Notes under the pieces: model-generated | The model's database searches: none | Told to the model about the DNA's origin: nothing | Seen by the model: the letters and a program-made list of their open reading frames with translations, nothing else | NCBI GenBank assembly: GCA_039798745.1 | Contig: JBDKFK010000004.1 | Location: 21,178-85,177, forward strand | Length of the DNA: 64,000 nucleotides | Direction of reading: 5' to 3' | DNA from: Candidatus Parcubacteria bacterium | GTDB lineage: Bacteria > Patescibacteriota > Microgenomatia > UBA1406 > GWC2-37-13 | In this document: one piece after another, positions 19,434-31,259 of the stretch | Layout of the letters: every line of letters begins with the position of its first letter | How positions within the stretch are numbered: position 1 is the stretch's first letter | Program-made: the position numbers and the translations under genes

Positions 19434-20585
19434 ATGAACCATTATAAAGGTTTGATAAGCTTGCTCTTCGTATTTTTTCTTTCATTTTTTATATTTGTTC
19501 GGCCAGCTTCTGCCATTACCTTAAAAGCCGATAAATCAGTTCATATAGAGCAAGATACAGTGGTTGATGGAAGCTTGTTTATAGCAGGCTCCACTATAAC
19601 GGTTGACGCAAATATTAATGGTGATGTTATCTGCGCGGGTCAGAATGTAACTCTTAATGGAGATGTAGAGGGTGATATTATCTGTGCGGCTCAGTCATTG
19701 ACTATAAACGGACACGTAAATGGTGATATCCGTACTGCGGTCCAGACACTTGAACTAAATAGCGTTGTAGAACATAACGTTTCGCTGTTTGGGCAAAAAG
19801 TAATGGTAAGTCGGGATGCTGTGGTAAGAGGAGAAATGTTTCTGGGATCACAGCAGGCAGTAATCGAAGGTTCAGTTGAGCGTGATGTAATGGGCGGCGC
19901 TGAGACGGTAGATCTACGCGGTCACGTAGGCAAAAATGTAAATCTGGATGTTGATGAGTTGATTGTGCACGAAGGGGCGAGTATATCGGGTAACCTTACA
20001 TACACAAGTGACCATAAAGCTCAGATCAATCAGGGAATAGTCGCTGGAAATGTACGACAGGAAATTCCGACCAGACCTGAAAAAAGAGAAAAATCTCCCC
20101 AACAGAAAACAGCGGGGTGGTTGGTTGGTAAGATTCTTGGAATACTATCATTCTCACTGTTAGGCCTGTTGCTCGTATATCTCTGGCCAAAAAAACTAAA
20201 AACTCTCTATGGAGAGATGGTTGATAATAAGGGAAGGTATATGCTGCACGGAGCCGTGGTTATGTTTCTTACGCCGATACTTGCGATCATAGTGGCCATT
20301 ACAGTAATTGGCTTGCCTCTCGCGTTCGTTATAATGCTTCTCTGGTTGGTTGCCCTTGTTGTAAGTAGAGTTCTGGTAGGGTTTGTTGTAGGGGAGTATA
20401 TACTGCGTCAATATTCCAAAAAATATAAAGAAAATGTATGGATAATAACGCTCCTTGGGATGACCGTAATCACGCTCGCCTTTGAAATACCATTCCTTGG
20501 ATGGTTACTATCGCTTGTCGCATTCTGGTGGGGCACAGGAGCTCTTGTCAATATGTTTAAGCCGGGAGAACATAAATCAAAATAA
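19434..20585 (+). CDS. Membrane protein with bactofilin-like beta-helix repeats fused to a polytopic C-terminal domain
   Basis: A signal/anchor, then repeated xNGDVxG/DIxCAAQ units (VDANINGDVICAGQNVTLNGDVEGDIICAAQSLTINGHVNGDI), then about 4 TM helices. Confidence 0.45.
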   Translation: MNHYKGLISLLFVFFLSFFIFVRPASAITLKADKSVHIEQDTVVDGSLFIAGSTITVDANINGDVICAGQNVTLNGDVEGDIICAAQSLTINGHVNGDIRTAVQTLELNSVVEHNVSLFGQKVMVSRDAVVRGEMFLGSQQAVIEGSVERDVMGGAETVDLRGHVGKNVNLDVDELIVHEGASISGNLTYTSDHKAQINQGIVAGNVRQEIPTRPEKREKSPQQKTAGWLVGKILGILSFSLLGLLLVYLWPKKLKTLYGEMVDNKGRYMLHGAVVMFLTPILAIIVAITVIGLPLAFVIMLLWLVALVVSRVLVGFVVGEYILRQYSKKYKENVWIITLLGMTVITLAFEIPFLGWLLSLVAFWWGTGALVNMFKPGEHKSK

Positions 20586-22663: not shown

Positions 22664-23224
22664 ATGAGGAAATCAGTGGCATTTTTTATCTACAATATAG
22701 CCATATGTATTACAGTCTTATTATTCTCCGCTGTAGTATCGGAAGCCGCAACCTTACAGTTGAAAAGATCTGGCATGAAAGATATATCTAAAGGAAGTAC
22801 GTTTTCGCTACCAGTGACAATTGATACAAAAAATGAATCTATAACCGGCGCGGACGCCATTATATTATATGATCCTGAGATGCTTACATTTGTCTCCGCG
22901 GATGATGATAAATTTTTCCCTTTTTTTACCTATAAACACGAGTCCGGTTCTATTAGAGCGTCTGGAGTGATAACTGATATAAAAGAACTCAAGACCGGGT
23001 CGGGAGGTATGACCACTCTCAAGTTTAAGGCGATAAAAAGTGGTCAGACTAAGGTTCAGATATTCTGTGATACTTCAACAAATGATACTTCAAAAATAAT
23101 ACTTTCCGATCTTGACGCCACTAATATTATTAACTGTAAAGATATAGACGACCAAACATTACATATCGTTTCTGAAGGTTTTGTTGCTACGGTTACCAAA
23201 TTTCTTTTTGGTTGGTGGAAGTGA
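22664..23224 (+). CDS. Secreted cohesin-like domain protein
   Basis: A signal peptide, then ATLQLKRSG...GSTFSLPVTIDTKNESITGADAIILYDPEMLTFVS, which is the cohesin-domain pattern. Confidence 0.5.
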   Translation: MRKSVAFFIYNIAICITVLLFSAVVSEAATLQLKRSGMKDISKGSTFSLPVTIDTKNESITGADAIILYDPEMLTFVSADDDKFFPFFTYKHESGSIRASGVITDIKELKTGSGGMTTLKFKAIKSGQTKVQIFCDTSTNDTSKIILSDLDATNIINCKDIDDQTLHIVSEGFVATVTKFLFGWWK

Positions 23225-23551: not shown

Positions 23552-23606
23552 AAAAGACGCCAGACTTGAATATGCTCTCTGGATGTGTTCATGTCCGGCG
23601 TCTTTT
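23552..23606 (+). promoter_or_regulatory. Large hairpin immediately upstream of the SD of the GC-rich ORF
   Basis: AAAAGACGCCAGAC (23552-23565) pairs with GTCCGGCGTCTTTT (23593-23606) at 13 of 14 positions, with a 27-nt loop. TTTTATAATGAAAGGAG follows. Confidence 0.45.
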
Positions 23607-23629
23607 ATAATGAAAGGAGTGCCCCCTCT

Positions 23630-24403
23630 ATGGTTCTACGCCGAAAACCTGCCGGCCTGTCAATGTGTCTGCTCCTCTTGCTGACAGTATTGACGGGAAT
23701 GACCGCACACCCCGTTCGGGCGCAACAGTTTTCACCAAGCGTTCACCTACAGCCTGCGGGAATCCAATCGGACCCATCAACCGCTTCGTCGGGAACTATC
23801 ACCGTTTCATCTCCCTGGGATGGCCAGGCAATATATCTCCCACCCGGACAGAGCACAGCCCTATGGATAACGGGGACTGCCTCTGTGAGTGATGGTGAGA
23901 TAGCGGTACAGATCAAGATAGACAACGAAGCAGGTGGTCGCAACGCTGAGGTCGACGCAACCGGAAACTGGAGCTATCAGTGGTCAGTTCCTGCCGACAC
24001 GTCGTTAGGCCCTCACACCATTATGGCAACCCTCAACAACGGTTTGGCAGCGGTTGAAGTCCACTTTCGGTTTATCAATACGCCGCCAGGTGATATTGCT
24101 CTGACTGCTCCTCTACCGGGTACAGTATACCGCGTACCTGACAAGGGCAGCATCAATATCCGCGTTACTGGAACTGCCACCTCCAGTAGCACCCCTATCG
24201 GAGTATCCCTATATTTCGATGGGGATCCAACTCCACATCCTGCTAGCATAGTTGGCGATACGTGGAGCTATACCTGGACAGTGAATTCATCAACTCGACT
24301 CGGTCGTCGTACGATTCGGGTCGTGTTAAACAATGGTGAAGCATATGTGCAGGTAGAGGTACGGCTTGTCCGGCAGCTCTTTATACCTCTGATAGAGAGA
24401 TAA
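23630..24403 (+). CDS. Secreted protein with two tandem Ig-like repeats (compositionally foreign, GC-rich)
   Basis: An AAAGGAG SD lies 10 nt before the ATG at 23630. The signal peptide is MVLRRKPAGLSMCLLLLLTVLTGMTAHPVRA. There is an internal duplication: ...TGTAS..I.V......A.VD.TGNWSYQWSV...LGPHTI.ATLNNG.A.VEV versus ...TGTAT...VGDTWSYTWTV...LGRRTIRVVLNNGEAYVQVEV. GC is clearly above the neighbouring genes. Confidence 0.65.
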   Translation: MVLRRKPAGLSMCLLLLLTVLTGMTAHPVRAQQFSPSVHLQPAGIQSDPSTASSGTITVSSPWDGQAIYLPPGQSTALWITGTASVSDGEIAVQIKIDNEAGGRNAEVDATGNWSYQWSVPADTSLGPHTIMATLNNGLAAVEVHFRFINTPPGDIALTAPLPGTVYRVPDKGSINIRVTGTATSSSTPIGVSLYFDGDPTPHPASIVGDTWSYTWTVNSSTRLGRRTIRVVLNNGEAYVQVEVRLVRQLFIPLIER

Positions 24404-25419: not shown

Positions 25420-28400
25420 TTATTCTTCGTTCGCAATAATTCCAAGTTTGGGGAATATCAATGATGACTTGGGACGATATATTTCACCGTCGGTAATATG
25501 ATACACGATATAAGGGAGAGTTAGTGTTCCTGATTCCGCATTGGCGTCAAAATATACTGATTGTTCAGTATAGTCAGAGGCTGATATATAGGTTTGTTTA
25601 TACGATTCCGCTTCCGGGTATATACTCCGTAACATATTCTGATACTCAGGACTATTATTTGAGTCCTGATTAAGGTACATAAAGCCCGGAGGTATCATAT
25701 CGTAGAGCTGAAATTCAGTATAGCTGAGATCATCTGGCTCATAGATATGTGTCACCGGATTAATGGCAAGAAGCTCTATAATGCCGGAACTGCCTGTTTC
25801 TATCCGTTTTATACGCTTACCATCATCGAGCGACCGATAGGAACGAACAAAACCAGTAATTACATGTTTTGCGGCAGTTGTTTTTTTTGTTCGGCTCCCT
25901 AACTCAACAGTTGATAGAGATGTGTATATAGGCAACCCTTCGTTATGCTTCATCTCTACTGTTATTTTATCGTTGGAGAAGTTGATGGCATGATAATCTG
26001 CGCTAAAACCGCCATTGTACTGATCATCAGATGTTCGCTCATATATTTTTTTATCATTAAGATACAGTGTGGCAACAGGAGTATCAAAATCAAGATTTCG
26101 CCTTAGAGCGTGTCTCACGCCAGCGACAAGAGCAAGATAGGGGTTATTGCTGTAGTATGACATATACTGATAACTGAGCCCTTTCACTGCTTTATCCGCA
26201 TCTTCAGGAGATCCGTATAAGATCATTGCCAATGCCGGCAATGAACGAGTATATTGAGAGGGTGTTGACCAAAAATATCTATCGTCACTTGAAGGGACTG
26301 TAAGCGATCTCAACGATTCAAGTGCTTTTTTATCTCCTCTCATAGCTTTTGACGCGTAACAGCTTGATATGTATGCGTTCGTACAATCATTGCCATCGCC
26401 ATAGCCCAAAAGCCATCGCTTAATAACGGATTCTTCATCAGTTTTAAAAAACGCGACTTCGTTGTTTGCTACTGAGGTTGATATTTTTTTTACTATATCA
26501 GAAGCGTTTAATATTTCATCCAGAACACCGTTGGATAGAGCTTCTTTCAAACCTATTCCTATCATTGTGGTATATAAGCCATCTGATTCTTTTGCATATG
26601 TATCAGGATGTGTCCACCATATGTTTTTTTGCGTTGTTTCGAGACGTTTTTCTAGGATATCCGCAATTTTAGTGCGTAAACTATTTTTTACATGAGCATA
26701 TTTATACAATGACGGAGCTATATATCCATTTTTTGTCTGAGCCAATATTATTGAGGATGCATAGATACGTAACGCGTCTGATGTTGAACCGTAGTAAAAC
26801 GGAGATGAGAGATCATTATAGCTTGTCTGAGAGAGCATGGTTGCAACATGGGGTGCCACACGTACCGACAGGGTGTTTACATCTAATCCCGGATGTTTTG
26901 CGTTATATGTATAGGTATAACCGTTTTCATATTGCATCCAATCAGTGACTATATCTTCACGAGGAAGAAGAGGTTGCTTTACTAGGACTGAGTCGAGTAT
27001 GTTGCCTGAGGCTGTATCTTTGAGTTCGTATGTAATACTAACTTCATTTTTGTTGCTATTCAGCGCCACGGGCAGAAGTACTGTTTCAAAATCATTGTTA
27101 GCTATCTTTATTGATTTTTCGACACTCCCTTTAAGTTCTTTTACGCTCAGCTTCATGGTGGCCTGTATCTCGCGGCCGGAATTATTCTGTACAAGTGCCG
27201 TCATAACCGGCTTGTCGTTCTGGTAATAGTATTTGGAAAGCGCGGGTATAATAACAACATCCTTCTTTGAGATGAACTCGGCGATGCTCTGTCCGAACTG
27301 TGACTGTTTAGTTGACGCAACTACCTGAGAGGTAAAGGTAGTTGTATTGTCTGGCAGTTTAAAGCTTACTGAAGCAATACCCTGTTCGTTTGTCTTCACG
27401 TGAGGATTCCAATAAGCGGTATCAACAAAGTTATGTCGAGGGTCCATGCCTTTTTCATTGTGGACGTAAATACCCTCAGCTATAAATGTATGTGTAGTCG
27501 CTGTGGTTAGATTGTAAACAACATACTGCCCTGTATGATGGGTTATAGAATCTATTACAACAGCTTCTCCGTCTTTGTTAATGAGTTTATCACCTATGCG
27601 TGCCTGAGAGGCAGTCTGCCAGGTCCCATTTAGATAGATGCGGTGAATAGGCGTAACATTGAGCGAGCCGTTAATCGTAAGATATTCATCAACAACATGC
27701 CGGAATGTTCTGGTTACTTTGTCATTGATGAGCCGTCCATTCTGAGGGTTTTCAAAGGTTGAAATAACATCGCCCACCATAACATCTTCAATAGATTTGA
27801 GTGTCCCATCAGCCATAAGGATAGTCGTTCCTGCGACAAAACATCCACCACCTCCGCCTCCGCTCTGTTTGTAAATACCTGTTAATGAATCGAAATGAGA
27901 AACATATAAGTAATAGTTATTCTGGTTGTAAAATGATCCGAAGATATTTCCGAGATCGCCCGCAATTTGCAGCACTGCGCTGTCTATTACAGACAGGGAG
28001 GTATCTGCAGATACAGGCTTGTCCTCTGAATTTTTGGTACTTATTGTCGCTTTGACGGTATCTCCAGGTTTATACTCCGATTTATCAAATGCTACCGATG
28101 TTTTGAGTTTGTACAGCTCTGGGTCTACCGAAACAATAGCCTGGGACTGGACTATTTTACCCTCATGCACCGAAAATAAGTTTATACCTATAGATCCCGC
28201 CGATGTCGGACTGATAGGAATTTTGATCTCAAATGAATTAGGGTTCTGTTTTGATATTCGAAAGGTATCTATTGAGGTAGTATATCCGGGCGCTGTGGTA
28301 ATAATTGTGGCGGTATCTGAGAGATCAAAGTCTGCTCGTACATTGACTGTTGCTTCCTCGCCCGGTTGGTATGTGCTCTTTTGTGTGGTCATCTTAATAG

Positions 28401-30615
28401 ATGCGGTTGGTTGTTGTACTACATACTCCTGTTTGTTCCCTATATAAACGGTGTGGCTTGCAGTTACTGTATTTCCACGTTCATCCGTTCCTTTTGCCGT
28501 AATTTCGTAGCTTCCGGTATCTTTATACGGCAAATCAAGGGGTATCGTGCCTTCGGCGCTTACGCTCGCTGACTTGGATGTAATAAGTGTTTTATTACTG
28601 TAATCAATTATTTTGTGAAGCGTTATATCCAGAGTTGTTTTTGTATAGGGTTCTCGTTCTTTTTTGTGATCAAGAACATGTATTGTTCCTTTGATCCCAT
28701 CTTCGACATTGCTTTCAACTTTATCAAAGAATAAAGCAAACTCTCCTCTATGGACAAGTTTAATGAGTTTTCCTATCGAAGGAGCCGCTCCTATTTTGGG
28801 TGTTACCTCGAGCGTAATGTACTGACTCTGGTCAAATTTTAGAAGATCTGTTGAAAATGATATCTGAGCTTTACCTTTAGCATCAAATGTGCCGCTGCCG
28901 GTTGTCAACTCTTCTCCATAACCATAAGATGAAAAGTTTTCACCCGGAAGTTGCTCATGGTTTCGGTCCCGTTCTTCATAATAGCTATTAGCTAGTACAC
29001 GGTATGTAAACGCCGCATTGGTAAGCGGCTGTCCATACAAAGTACGCGCAGATACAGTGATATGGGCTGTATCTTTGCTTATGTATTCTTTTTCAGATGT
29101 AGTCGCGGTAATTTCTAAGTCAGGTTTATGGTAAGACTCTATAAGAAGTTCCTGAGTATGAATCTGAGTATATGTATCTTTCTGTTTTCTGTAATAAATA
29201 ATGCGAGGAAATCCGTGAATCTCTTTTGGCAAATCAATATCGGCAGATATGGTACCGTTTTCATCAAGCTGTGTTTCAGTATACTGGGTGTGGTCGGTAT
29301 CTTTTACGGAAGAGCTGCTATCAAGATACTGATAATAGATTGCGCCTTCCGGGATTTTGTATTCACCCTTTTCACGAAGCCTTACTATAGTTTTTGTATG
29401 TACGGTATCACCAGGTTTATATACAGGCCTATCAGTATATGAGTATATAGAATAGTGATTGTTTACCAGCTCATAATAACGATCGGTGTAGGAGATGGCG
29501 AAGTTATTGTTACTACCCGTTATTACAAAATCGATACTGGTGTCATTATTCCTTTTATATATGCCATCCTTATCGGTAGTGCCCTGTCCTATAAGCTTAG
29601 GTGTGTTGTTAAGAGCATAGTAACTAACAGGTAATCCAGGCAGAGATTTTCCCTGCATATCCGTAGTCCATACGATCGAGCTGTCGTTATCCATAAATAC
29701 CTGATTTACATGGTCAGTCACATTAATTATAAGATCTTCGGTGTTGTGTGGACTGGTTAGTTTGACGTAGTATAGACCTGATTGTTGGAACGCGGGAATA
29801 TCTATGGAAATTCGCTCACTTGAGCCGTTACTGGCATTGGGTTGAGCATCAAAAGAGAGAATCTCATGTTGCTCAGGTTTCTGTTCGAAATAATACATAA
29901 GCTCCCATCTGTAGTCGTTTTTATACTGGAAGTAATTTACTACCTGGGATACCTCTGCAGGGAATACGGATACATGAATTGGCTGAGTATTATCGCTATA
30001 TGTTGTGCCACTTCCATAGTTTGCATAATACAGTTCCAGATTGCTTGGTTCGTTCACTCGTACGTTCAGCAGTTTATAATTGCTGTTCAGAGCTTGTGCA
30101 TCTTTGGATACTGTTCTAAACAGAATAACCTTATTTGAATTAATTGACTCACCTGATGCTGAAGTTATACCTTTATTGATGGTAATTTTATATACCGTAT
30201 CATACATAAACTGTTGTGGAAAGGAGTTTTGCTGAGTTTTGCCGGAGGTGAATGAGATGACTTGTTTATTTGGTTCCAGACGCCAGCTTCCTTTTATAGA
30301 CGGAGAGATACTGAAGTATTTTGTTATATCTTTTTCAGATATATTCAGTGGCTTGGAAAAAACAAACGTAGGCTCACCATTTACGGGAAACGATGTCGAC
30401 TGATCGTCTGGGGAGCTTTCGACTAACTCAAATTTAATATCCTTTTTGAGTAGTTTATCTGAAGGTCTTCGTGGTGTTGAAGACTTATTTATATAGAGCC
30501 CCACTGCAAGAGCACCGATTATGAGTAGGAACGGTACTACAAAGCGGAATATATGATGACCTTTGTTGTGCGGGCCTTCGGCAATCAACAATAAATCATC
30601 CTCATCAGTCTGCAT
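25420..30615 (-). CDS. Giant membrane-anchored alpha-2-macroglobulin-like protein interrupted by a Hint domain
   Basis: 1731 aa with an N-terminal TM helix and many Ig-like (MG-like) segments with YKPGDTV-type strands. After residue 1053 comes PRHNFVDTAYWNPHVKTNEQGIASVSFKLPDNTTTF, the conserved A2M-family segment. No CxEQ thioester motif occurs in the translation. Confidence 0.7.
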   Translation of the reverse strand: MQTDEDDLLLIAEGPHNKGHHIFRFVVPFLLIIGALAVGLYINKSSTPRRPSDKLLKKDIKFELVESSPDDQSTSFPVNGEPTFVFSKPLNISEKDITKYFSISPSIKGSWRLEPNKQVISFTSGKTQQNSFPQQFMYDTVYKITINKGITSASGESINSNKVILFRTVSKDAQALNSNYKLLNVRVNEPSNLELYYANYGSGTTYSDNTQPIHVSVFPAEVSQVVNYFQYKNDYRWELMYYFEQKPEQHEILSFDAQPNASNGSSERISIDIPAFQQSGLYYVKLTSPHNTEDLIINVTDHVNQVFMDNDSSIVWTTDMQGKSLPGLPVSYYALNNTPKLIGQGTTDKDGIYKRNNDTSIDFVITGSNNNFAISYTDRYYELVNNHYSIYSYTDRPVYKPGDTVHTKTIVRLREKGEYKIPEGAIYYQYLDSSSSVKDTDHTQYTETQLDENGTISADIDLPKEIHGFPRIIYYRKQKDTYTQIHTQELLIESYHKPDLEITATTSEKEYISKDTAHITVSARTLYGQPLTNAAFTYRVLANSYYEERDRNHEQLPGENFSSYGYGEELTTGSGTFDAKGKAQISFSTDLLKFDQSQYITLEVTPKIGAAPSIGKLIKLVHRGEFALFFDKVESNVEDGIKGTIHVLDHKKEREPYTKTTLDITLHKIIDYSNKTLITSKSASVSAEGTIPLDLPYKDTGSYEITAKGTDERGNTVTASHTVYIGNKQEYVVQQPTASIKMTTQKSTYQPGEEATVNVRADFDLSDTATIITTAPGYTTSIDTFRISKQNPNSFEIKIPISPTSAGSIGINLFSVHEGKIVQSQAIVSVDPELYKLKTSVAFDKSEYKPGDTVKATISTKNSEDKPVSADTSLSVIDSAVLQIAGDLGNIFGSFYNQNNYYLYVSHFDSLTGIYKQSGGGGGGCFVAGTTILMADGTLKSIEDVMVGDVISTFENPQNGRLINDKVTRTFRHVVDEYLTINGSLNVTPIHRIYLNGTWQTASQARIGDKLINKDGEAVVIDSITHHTGQYVVYNLTTATTHTFIAEGIYVHNEKGMDPRHNFVDTAYWNPHVKTNEQGIASVSFKLPDNTTTFTSQVVASTKQSQFGQSIAEFISKKDVVIIPALSKYYYQNDKPVMTALVQNNSGREIQATMKLSVKELKGSVEKSIKIANNDFETVLLPVALNSNKNEVSITYELKDTASGNILDSVLVKQPLLPREDIVTDWMQYENGYTYTYNAKHPGLDVNTLSVRVAPHVATMLSQTSYNDLSSPFYYGSTSDALRIYASSIILAQTKNGYIAPSLYKYAHVKNSLRTKIADILEKRLETTQKNIWWTHPDTYAKESDGLYTTMIGIGLKEALSNGVLDEILNASDIVKKISTSVANNEVAFFKTDEESVIKRWLLGYGDGNDCTNAYISSCYASKAMRGDKKALESLRSLTVPSSDDRYFWSTPSQYTRSLPALAMILYGSPEDADKAVKGLSYQYMSYYSNNPYLALVAGVRHALRRNLDFDTPVATLYLNDKKIYERTSDDQYNGGFSADYHAINFSNDKITVEMKHNEGLPIYTSLSTVELGSRTKKTTAAKHVITGFVRSYRSLDDGKRIKRIETGSSGIIELLAINPVTHIYEPDDLSYTEFQLYDMIPPGFMYLNQDSNNSPEYQNMLRSIYPEAESYKQTYISASDYTEQSVYFDANAESGTLTLPYIVYHITDGEIYRPKSSLIFPKLGIIANEE
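27457..27843 (-). other. Mini Hint / bacterial-intein-like autoprocessing domain (residues 925-1053 of the macroglobulin-like protein)
   Basis: The N-terminal block is CFVAGTTILMADGTLKSIEDVMVGDVI (Cys codon at 27843-27841). The C-terminal block is VYNLTTATTHTFIAEGIYVHN (Asn codon at 27459-27457). SGGGGGG precedes it and Glu follows it. At about 129 aa there is no room for an endonuclease. Confidence 0.8.
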
Positions 30616-30659: not shown

Positions 30660-31202
30660 TTACTGTTCGAATGCCGGAAAGTCTTCATCTCCGTTGGCAG
30701 ACTTGGCATTGTCGTTAAGCCATTCAACATGTGTACATCCAGTTGCTTCTTTTTTCACACGGTCCCAGCCGGCTGTACTACATTTTTTCATGCGTTTACC
30801 GTTGGCTGTTGTTACGAGAAGCAGTGGTTGTCCGCATTCGGGACATTCTTCTTTCAATGTTTCTTTGGTGCCGTTAAACCACTCAACATAATCACAACCC
30901 GTTGCTTTTTTTGCGTCACGATCCCAACCTGAAGTGCTGCATTTTTTTAGTTTTTTTCCGTTCCTGGTGGTCATCATTACTAAAGGATTTCCACATTTGG
31001 GACATTTTTCATCCAGCTCTTCGGGCGTTGCTTCAATCCATTTAACATAGTCACAGCCCTCGACCTGACGGGTTTCTCTATTCCAGGATCCTGCTGAGCA
31101 TCTCTGGAGTTTTTTTCCTGACGGAGTCTCGGTAACAGGTGACAGGGGAGATCCGCATTTTGGACAAGTATCTGGGTTAGTGGTTTTAGATTCTTTTTTC
31201 AT
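30660..31202 (-). CDS. Protein with three tandem 4-Cys zinc-ribbon repeats (topoisomerase-type C4 finger-like)
   Basis: The three repeats are: CPKCGSPLSPVTETPSGKKLQRCSAGSWNRETRQVEGCDYVKW; CPKCGNPLVMMTTRNGKKLKKCSTSGWDRDAKKATGCDYVEW; CPECGQPLLLVTTANGKRMKKCSTAGWDRVKKEATGCTHVEW. I prefer the ATG at 31202 to the TTG at 31259. Confidence 0.6.
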   Translation of the reverse strand: MKKESKTTNPDTCPKCGSPLSPVTETPSGKKLQRCSAGSWNRETRQVEGCDYVKWIEATPEELDEKCPKCGNPLVMMTTRNGKKLKKCSTSGWDRDAKKATGCDYVEWFNGTKETLKEECPECGQPLLLVTTANGKRMKKCSTAGWDRVKKEATGCTHVEWLNDNAKSANGDEDFPAFEQ

Positions 31203-31259
31203 AGTGATTAATAAGTGTATAGACTCTTCAAGTATTTTGCAATCGCATATACTCTTCAA

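Follow-up and report, generated by a model that had tools for sequence, protein, structure and literature searches.

A 64,000-nucleotide stretch of a Candidatus Parcubacteria genome (GenBank assembly GCA_039798745.1, contig JBDKFK010000004.1, positions 21,178 to 85,177; hereafter the window) encodes on its minus strand a 1731-amino-acid (aa) protein of the alpha-2-macroglobulin (A2M) kind that carries a 129-aa mini Hint domain at the position of the A2M bait region. The same domain recurs, at the same site, in A2M proteins of Patescibacteria, the ultra-small bacteria of the candidate phyla radiation (CPR), apparently across hundreds of lineages. We consider it rather probable that it is an autoprocessing Hint of the bacterial intein-like (BIL) type, that is, an A-type BIL related to the Hint domains of polymorphic toxins (PT-HINT), that entered the Gly-rich bait loop of an A2M once in a Patescibacteria ancestor, was inherited vertically, and excises itself after export of the protein.

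The Hint domain comprises residues 925–1053. The translation of positions 27400–27900 on the minus strand reads YKQSGGGGGG, then CFVAGTTILMADGTLKSIEDVMVGDVI, through NVTPIHRIY to VYNLTTATTHTFIAEGIYVHN, and then EKGMDPRHNFVDTAYWNPH, the Hint running from CFVAGTTILMADGTLKSIEDVMVGDVI to VYNLTTATTHTFIAEGIYVHN. The Pfam PT-HINT model (PF07591) matched residues 933–1053 with 38.5 bits in the full protein and 44.8 bits for the domain alone (gathering threshold 27.7); Hom_end_hint and Vint also matched (37 and 28.6 bits), and NCBIfam intein_Cterm scored 24.9 against a cut-off of 15.6. Together with these profile matches, the domain has the N-terminal Cys and block-B TxxH of the Hint superfamily. It ends in His-Asn and is followed by Glu1054 rather than by Cys, Ser or Thr at the +1 position, so that it agrees with the definition of an A-type BIL; of the class 1 intein features, His-Asn is present and the +1 nucleophile is absent. 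With its 129 aa, it is too short to hold an endonuclease as well.

An AlphaFold2 model of residues 735–1165 had a mean predicted local distance difference test (pLDDT) value of 83, with 85–95 over the Hint residues, 80–96 over the bait-region domain (A2M_BRD), and values below 50 only in two linkers, at residues 912–922 and 1056–1064 (model residues 178–188 and 322–330). The Hint part of the model has the Hint fold, and its best Foldseek matches were both BILs: the C. thermocellum BIL 2lwy (template-modelling (TM) score 0.84, root-mean-square deviation 1.8 Å, 30% identity) and the Tetrahymena BIL2 6y75 (TM score 0.79). 2lwy is reported to be specifically a type A BIL (Dassa 2004, Aranko 2013). 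The flanks matched A2M, ECAM, SaA2M and C3. By sequence (phmmer), the best PDB match of the Hint was 8w20 (5e-9), which is 1368 aa long and bears the deposited name "Intein C-terminal splicing domain-containing protein", followed by 2lwy (1.4e-7; 5e-17 by profile) and the RecA mini-inteins (~2e-5).

The position of the Hint within the A2M architecture was located from both flanks. Pfam recognized Big_5, MG2, A2M_BRD, PT-HINT and A2M in the 1731-aa protein, with MG2 and Big_5 lying more N-terminally. With the full protein as a single query against the PDB, phmmer gave Hint matches only, and the A2M matches needed a profile of 19 family sequences. This profile aligned with ECAM/YfhM over nearly the full length (E=4e-95) in two stretches, positions 126–885 with residues 89–885 of the 5a42 chain and positions 1059–1728 with residues 939–1611, and the Hint (profile ~908–1036) was the sole unaligned gap, at 5a42 chain residues 886–938. 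In native ECAM numbering the gap lies at ~925–977, with an offset estimated from the chain lengths of 5a42 and 4rtd, and by this estimate it covers the bait, Arg923–Leu942, which is disordered in ECAM, where the bait-region domain lies within MG8 (PMC4498604). The macroglobulin (MG) array, bait-region domain, A2M domain and TED/CTMG region of bacterial A2Ms were all present. The residues Arg1060, Phe1063 and Asp1065 were invariant in the family alignment (alignment A1). Placement of the Hint at the bait-region position is supported by this alignment and by the model. The initial annotation had described residues 925–1053 as a complete mini Hint of the BIL kind, with Gly6 before it and Glu at +1, inserted at the bait position of an A2M. 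The translation, the Cys1, TxxH and His-Asn residues, the Hint and A2M profile matches, the nearest solved structures (2lwy and 6y75), and the ECAM gap with its MG-type flanks in the model all agree with this description, and its codon positions for Cys925, Asn1053 and Glu1054 were exact.

In a first homolog search, the same insertion was found in proteins 27–39% identical to the window protein, two of them with the source names Roizmanbacteria and Peregrinibacteria. A word-indexed search with the alignment of the junction yielded nothing but short fragments and PT-HINT proteins, and the full-length family escaped it. We therefore report the family from an exhaustive HMMER census, in which a 269-position profile spanning flank, Hint and flank was run against 1.84 billion cluster representatives and yielded 915 clusters (50% identity) at E<=1e-30. 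Of the best 150 matches, 144 shared the insertion, being A2Ms in which flank, Hint and flank were matched as one stretch, most of them 1640–1900 aa long (about 1.6–1.9 kaa) and nearly all of Patescibacteria/CPR origin. Because Hint-only or flank-only matches scored ~1e-25 or weaker, most of the 915 clusters should carry the full arrangement. The Hint was 129 aa long in 119 of 149 census proteins. This recurrence of the same domain, length and site is far beyond chance and statistically beyond doubt. Six census matches (P0172, P0176, P0177, P0181, P0183 and P0249) were large Cys-rich proteins with tandem Hint arrays of 3 to 13 matched stretches, in which some Hints are only two or three residues apart, e.g., ...AHN/KG/CFLPETP in P0181 (slashes mark Hint boundaries here and below).

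Cys1, TxxH and His-Asn were each present in all 144 census A2M-Hints. The residue before Cys1 was Gly in 144/144 and in 84/84 proteins of a second, independent set (228/228), and the one before that was Gly in 132/144. At +1, the 144 proteins had Asp (71), Gln (35), Glu (19), Gly (7), Ser (6) or Asn (4) as the main residues, with Asp, Gln or Glu in 125; the residue was non-nucleophilic in ~95%, and it was Ser or Thr in ~5% of relatives and in P0008. Lys stood at +2 in 144/144 census proteins and 83/84 of the second set (227/228), the sole exception being P0404 (AHN/DIGGKD), with Ile at +2 and Lys at +5. Gly stood at +3 in 131/144. The family signature is GG/C...HN/xKG. A sequencing or assembly artefact is ruled out by the 228 independent homologs.

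The Hint is more conserved than its host. Among orthologs, identity to the window protein was 52–62% in the Hint and 29–38% in the rest of the protein, and among 137 family members the flanks differed more than the Hint (mean distances of 0.74 and 0.55, respectively). The Hint and flank distance matrices of these 137 members co-varied (Mantel r=0.37, a value reached by 0 of 999 permutations), in keeping with co-inheritance.

When the species representatives of GTDB were scanned with one motif, G[IVF]YVHN[DE]K, 75 loci were detected (L numbers below), almost all in Patescibacteria/CPR, including Levyi-, Roizman-, Shapiro- and Collierbacteria, WWE3, Peregrini-, Peri- and Gracilibacteria, Magasanik-, Falkow- and Uhrbacteria, and Parcubacteria. 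Many loci came from third-party annotation (TPA) records of metagenome-assembled genomes (MAGs) titled "uncultured Gammaproteobacteria" or "Pseudomonadales" (e.g., L004, L006–L009, L011, L016, L018 and L021), and one such record each bore the archaeal title "Methanoperedens" or "Nanoarchaeia"; the titles are doubtful and probably stem from assemblies that were mislabelled or mis-binned, not from the true hosts. Source annotations of the relatives read only "MG2 domain-containing", "YfaS" or "hypothetical". A literature search of limited coverage found nothing linking inteins, BILs or Hint domains to macroglobulins, and the Hint-in-A2M arrangement appears to be so far undescribed.

No CxEQ thioester motif occurs anywhere in the window protein, as a search of its whole sequence confirmed. 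The initial annotation had further proposed that the Hint thioester functionally replaces this missing warhead; this is rejected, since the Hint coexists with CxEQ in the majority of its relatives, 74 of 137 Hint-bearing A2Ms. When these 137 were clustered by their flanks, the clusters of 65 and 9 were entirely CxEQ-positive and those of 37, 18, 7 and 1, which include the cluster of the window protein, entirely CxEQ-negative, so that presence or absence was perfectly clade-specific. Because most members keep CxEQ and its loss is clade-specific, the Hint predates the thioester loss or is independent of it. Judged from these alignments, CxEQ was lost secondarily in the lineage of the window protein, one of several such lineages. 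Exactly two Cys were found in 39 of the 74 CxEQ-positive proteins and exactly one in 16 of the 63 CxEQ-negative ones, presumably the Hint Cys1 and, in the former, the thioester Cys. A2M-Hint proteins are generally cysteine-poor; the window protein has three Cys (925, 1411 and 1419), or 0.17% compared with 0.53% in the other long open reading frames (ORFs) of the window.

Relatives without the Hint show what the site looks like when it is empty. A search from P0011 (Hint-less, CxEQ-positive) gave as its nearest match P0311, also Hint-less (69% identity), and then the Hint-bearing P0312–P0316 (50–56%). The other Hint-less members P0362, P0383/4, P0385/6, P0387, P0398, P0399 and P0402 were interspersed among Hint-bearing ones. 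All ten Hint-less sites inspected had the form AE[KRMG]GGGGG[D/E/N]xR..F.D, with neither Lys nor an xKG motif, which indicates that x-Lys-Gly travels with the Hint and is part of the autoprocessing unit, not of the A2M. The closest pair was P0313 (Hint-bearing), AERGGG/C...HN/EKGMDRTIFKD, and P0011, AERGGGGGGG-DRTVFKD. To judge from such sites, a continuous Gly-rich linker is evidently one functional state of the bait. Fitch parsimony on a quick neighbor-joining (NJ) tree of the Hint-stripped proteins gave nine to ten changes between presence and absence, or about nine after correction of P0404, which does carry the Hint. We infer one gain followed by repeated precise losses, because there is no endonuclease and the site and flanks are always identical.

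In the wider A2M branch of the Hint-less proteins (P0011, P0012, P0018, P0025, P0362, P0383–P0386, P0398 and P0399), the bait region is a homopolymer of 5–7 Gly, often after Ala-Glu and a basic residue. This branch includes non-CPR members with the source names Anaerolineae or Chloroflexota. For a protease trap, a bait made of such a homopolymer is unusual.

The proposed mechanism draws on domains of known chemistry. A-type BILs end in His-Asn, have no +1 nucleophile and form no branched ester; they can splice via a thioester, Asn cyclisation and attack by the freed amine, although cleavage products dominate (PMC4031507). BILs sit in variable regions of secreted or non-conserved bacterial proteins (PMC7765530), and the Hint described here lies in the bait-region loop of a Cys-poor, putatively membrane-anchored A2M whose export is predicted. 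Tetrahymena BIL2 links the C-terminal end of its N-extein to a Lys epsilon-amine by an isopeptide bond; the N-extein, with Gly-Gly at its end, is thus passed to lysines on other proteins (PMC8616854). PT-HINT domains stand just upstream of a C-terminal toxin and are seen as peptidases that set the toxin free (PMC3482391).

Once the protein is exported and folded, Cys925 would attack the Gly924 carbonyl, and the N-S acyl shift would give a Gly thioester; Asn1053, aided by His1052, would cyclise and break the Asn1053-Glu1054 bond. Because there is no Cys, Ser or Thr at +1, no branched ester could form, and the thioester would be resolved by an amine or water. The A2M halves could be re-ligated via the Lys1055 epsilon-amine, giving an isopeptide as in BIL2, or via the Glu1054 alpha-amine, as proposed for A-type BILs, and re-ligation would restore a continuous Gly-rich bait as in the Hint-less relatives. 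Self-excision with re-ligation is the outcome that we favour, at somewhat below an even chance.

Several points weigh against self-excision by a vertically inherited BIL-type Hint. For every family member, the outcome, be it ligation, cleavage or transfer, is taken from the chemistry of the wider family. The dominance of cleavage products in A-type BILs and the view of PT-HINT domains as releasing peptidases favour cleavage over ligation. Lys+2 could serve in catalysis or structure instead of acting as a nucleophile (compare P0404, with Ile at +2 and Lys at +5). Conserved catalytic residues would be equally expected of a merely tolerated intein-like passenger that must be excised for the host to function. 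The count of losses comes from a quick NJ tree, and export and membrane topology of the window protein are predicted, with ambiguous charges around its hydrophobic segment.

The main rival, which we judge somewhat unlikely, is programmed self-cleavage without ligation, in which the Hint would cut the bait at one or both junctions and leave two non-covalently associated chains or set off the A2M conformational change by itself, without a prey protease. The two-chain outcome would resemble furin-processed C3 and C4. In C3, C4 and C5, a linker and an anaphylatoxin domain occupy the equivalent place between the halves of the bait-bearing MG domain, and proteolytic maturation or activation takes place there; the family profile picks up again at C3 residue ~795, beyond the ANA domain. 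Self-cleavage agrees with this location, where A2Ms are cut, with the disordered linkers on both sides of the Hint in the AlphaFold2 model, with the cleavage chemistry of A-type BILs and PT-HINT domains just mentioned, and with MagD, whose two fragments remain associated after a cut at the bait (PMC5764988). Three observations nevertheless favour re-ligation. In the 74 of 137 relatives that bear the CxEQ thioester, constitutive bait cleavage would discharge the trap upon folding; the continuous Gly linker of the nested Hint-less relatives suggests that an unbroken chain is functional; and simple hydrolysis needs neither the near-invariant Gly-1 nor the near-invariant Lys+2, both of which are fixed in the family.

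A conditional form of cleavage is also conceivable, though unlikely, in which these proteins are self-firing CPR macroglobulins. The Hint would then break the bait autocatalytically in response to, e.g., pH, metal, thiol or contact, in place of a prey protease or convertase. In CxEQ-positive relatives, CxEQ would thereby become accessible and could bind covalently to a target or a host surface, and in relatives whose gene directly follows an extracytoplasmic function (ECF) sigma factor gene (see below), the break would lead to signalling; in a chemically novel sub-variant, Lys1055 would capture the Gly924 thioester, and the resulting isopeptide would staple the halves together.

That the Hint is a selfish or decaying mini-intein passenger without host function, kept because precise deletion is rare, we regard as improbable. 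Its intein-like blocks A, B, F and G without an endonuclease fit such an origin, as does the Ser or Thr at +1 in P0008 and ~5% of relatives, and the roughly nine independent losses, each leaving a functional-looking Gly linker, imply that the host can do without it. However, +1 is non-nucleophilic in ~95% of the 144 proteins, the Hint is conserved above the host protein over its whole length, and its nearest relatives are PT-HINT and BIL domains, not inteins. Its location in the most variable loop of a fast-evolving, putatively exported surface protein is also the pattern of BILs, not that of inteins.

Quite improbable, finally, is a Gly924~Cys925 thioester serving as a warhead or anchor, by which an outside nucleophile (the Lys of an attacking protease, or an amine of the cell wall or of a host surface) would hold the first 924 residues covalently in a Hedgehog-, sortase- or BUBL-like manner and compensate for the missing CxEQ: the transfer reported for BIL2, the unhindered acyl donor formed by Gly-Gly before Cys1 and the lack of CxEQ in the window protein speak for it, but the Hint stands beside an intact CxEQ in most relatives and so did not evolve as its replacement, the near-invariant intramolecular amine of Lys+2, two residues from the scissile junction, would out-compete external nucleophiles, and the N-terminal fragment is already, by prediction, membrane-anchored.

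The preferred reading, a BIL-type Hint that excises itself, places the domain between several known systems. With the C. thermocellum BIL 2lwy it shares the mini Hint fold, Cys1, TxxH, His-Asn, the lack of a +1 nucleophile, and a location in a variable region of an exported (here predicted) protein; it differs in its A2M bait-region host and in the near-invariant Gly-Gly and x-Lys-Gly flanks. BILs are scattered in hypervariable proteins, whereas the A2M-Hint is inherited clade-wide across CPR. BIL2 (6y75/6tmm) shares, besides the structural likeness (TM 0.79), a Gly-Gly directly before position 1 in its crystallised C1A construct, and its Lys epsilon-amine isopeptide is the chemistry that Lys+2 suggests for the A2M-Hint. 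Unlike the A2M-Hint, BIL2 is eukaryotic and cytoplasmic, has ubiquitin-like flanks and conjugates other proteins, and zinc activation has been reported for it.

PT-HINT provides the best Pfam model, the nearest non-A2M sequences (polymorphic-toxin HINT proteins) and the best PDB match, 8w20. PT-HINT domains precede a C-terminal toxin, whereas the A2M-Hint precedes an A2M body of ~680 aa, which begins with the A2M domain and aligns with ECAM to its C-terminus. The +2 residue of the non-A2M PT-HINT relatives (P0093–P0165) was Cys in 44/65 (HN/xC), in place of the Lys of the A2M family; both families appear to place a nucleophile two residues after the scissile Asn. In the PT-HINT literature covered, there appears to be no discussion of a role for a +2 nucleophile in processing.

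Class 1 mini-inteins (Mtu RecA, 2in0/3ifj) share Cys1, TxxH and His-Asn and align over the full length at ~1e-5. The A2M-Hint differs from them in lacking Cys, Ser or Thr at +1, in having no endonuclease, and in its host, which is not an intracellular housekeeping protein; it occupies the variable bait loop of a putatively exported protein, and its distribution is clade-wide rather than sporadic, with Hint and host co-varying.

Among A2Ms, the type I proteins ECAM and SaA2M, which have a thioester, share the MG array, bait-region domain, A2M domain and C-terminal CUB/TED/MG-like region, but the window protein lacks CxEQ and a pbpC operon. Like the window protein, the type II MagD/YfaS lacks CxEQ; here, no mag/yfa operon is present in the window and the Hint occupies the bait loop. 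As its closest relatives include thioester-bearing proteins, the window protein would represent a CPR lineage that has lost CxEQ rather than a member of the proteobacterial type II clade. It differs from these bacterial A2Ms in having a folded, putatively autoprocessing domain in the bait loop, a domain found in relatives with and without the thioester, and from periplasmic lipoprotein A2Ms in its predicted N-terminal membrane anchor in a CPR organism. Relative to C3, C4 and C5, the inserted domain is a Hint and not an anaphylatoxin, and cleavage would be autocatalytic rather than due to furin or a convertase.

What defines A2M and complement proteins is their need for an external protease to cut a bait or linker, and at this very point a bacterial radiation has placed a putatively self-cleaving, thioester-forming domain. 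If the Hint splices, it would amount to an intein-like element, large, ancient and passed on vertically, within an exported protein, possibly acting through a Lys isopeptide, and would add to the known biology of BIL domains, about whose natural roles little is understood. If it cleaves, it would provide a protease-independent trigger for the A2M-type conformational switch and a mode of regulation new to the superfamily. With its fixed flanks, GG/C...HN/xKG, the 129-aa unit could serve in protein engineering as a compact ligation tool without nucleophilic side chains. The A2M-Hint is also among the few widely conserved and experimentally approachable features of CPR surface proteins.

The features of the window gene are listed in Table 1. 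The N-terminal hydrophobic segment is predicted to be a membrane anchor or export signal, and orthologs also have a single N-terminal hydrophobic stretch.

Table 1 Features of the A2M-Hint gene and its product, with positions in the window.
Feature	Residues	Position	Strand	Basis
Whole gene, A2M-like protein with Hint	1731 aa	25420..30615	(-)	ORF and Pfam
N-terminal hydrophobic segment, FRFVVPFLLIIGALAVGLYI	23-42	30490..30549	(-)	Read from sequence
A2M_BRD (bait-region domain), N-terminal flank	740-884	27964..28398	(-)	Pfam 1e-14, full model length
Disordered N-linker, YKQS and Gly6, ending at Gly924 (Gly-1)	912-924	27844..27882; Gly6 27844-27861	(-)	AlphaFold2
Mini Hint/BIL-type domain, 129 aa	925-1053	27457..27843	(-)	Pfam, NCBIfam, PDB, AlphaFold2/Foldseek
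Cys codon, predicted N-terminal nucleophile	925	27841-27843	(-)	Translation
Block B, T-P-I-H	988-991	27643-27654	(-)	Translation
VYNLTT block		27502-27519	(-)	Translation
His1052-Asn1053	1052-1053	27457-27462 (Asn codon 27459-27457)	(-)	Translation
C-flank Glu1054-Lys1055-Gly1056 (+1 to +3)	1054-1056	27448..27456; Glu1054 27456-27454, Lys1055 27451-27453	(-)	Translation
Disordered C-linker, GMDPRHNFV	1056-1064	27424..27450	(-)	AlphaFold2
A2M domain PF00207, C-terminal flank	1066-1155	27151..27420	(-)	Pfam 7e-11
Degenerate thioester site, YYGSTSD	1274-1280	26776..26796	(-)	Aligned with PYGC[VI]EQ of relatives (alignment A1)

Many other lineages (loci L012–L075) have another gene arrangement in common. 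An ECF sigma-70 gene lies immediately upstream of the A2M-Hint gene in 32/75 loci (e.g., L038, 3911–4480), and a gene for a membrane-anchored Memo-like protein (PF01875) immediately downstream in 47/75 (e.g., L026, 10120–11058), often with overlapping stop and start codons. Both genes have the orientation of the A2M gene, and both are found in CxEQ-positive and CxEQ-negative lineages. At most of the sigma-linked loci inspected, the A2M-Hint protein begins with 60–120 aa that are predicted to be cytoplasmic, followed by a transmembrane helix, a topology that looks anti-sigma-like; no anti-sigma domain was matched by Pfam in these proteins. Sigma and Memo neighbours were both absent from the window.

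In the window, the neighbours of the A2M gene encode RsmB, on the downstream side, as well as a Zn-ribbon protein and a glycosyltransferase of the PMT_2 kind; neither pbpC nor the six-gene mag/yfa operon was found around it, and an Rfam scan of the window gave no match. The same Zn-ribbon and RsmB genes adjoin a 99% identical A2M copy in GCA_964596635.1 (L076). These two neighbours are common only to very close relatives and are uninformative.

The 199-aa protein encoded directly upstream of the A2M gene (30660–31259, minus strand) consists of three CxxC...C Zn-ribbon repeats and is similar to the zinc fingers at the C-terminus of topoisomerase I (weak PF01396 match). Just downstream of the RsmB gene, on the plus strand, are genes for two small predicted secreted proteins (22664–23224 and 23585–24403), one with a cohesin domain (PF00963, 6e-8) and the other with two Big_7 Ig-like repeats; this pair also adjoins the 99% identical A2M copy in GCA_964596635.1. 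A 383-aa protein encoded at 19434–20585 (plus strand) carries a bactofilin domain (PF04519, 1.3e-9) at its N-terminus; the ~250 aa after it gave no Pfam match.

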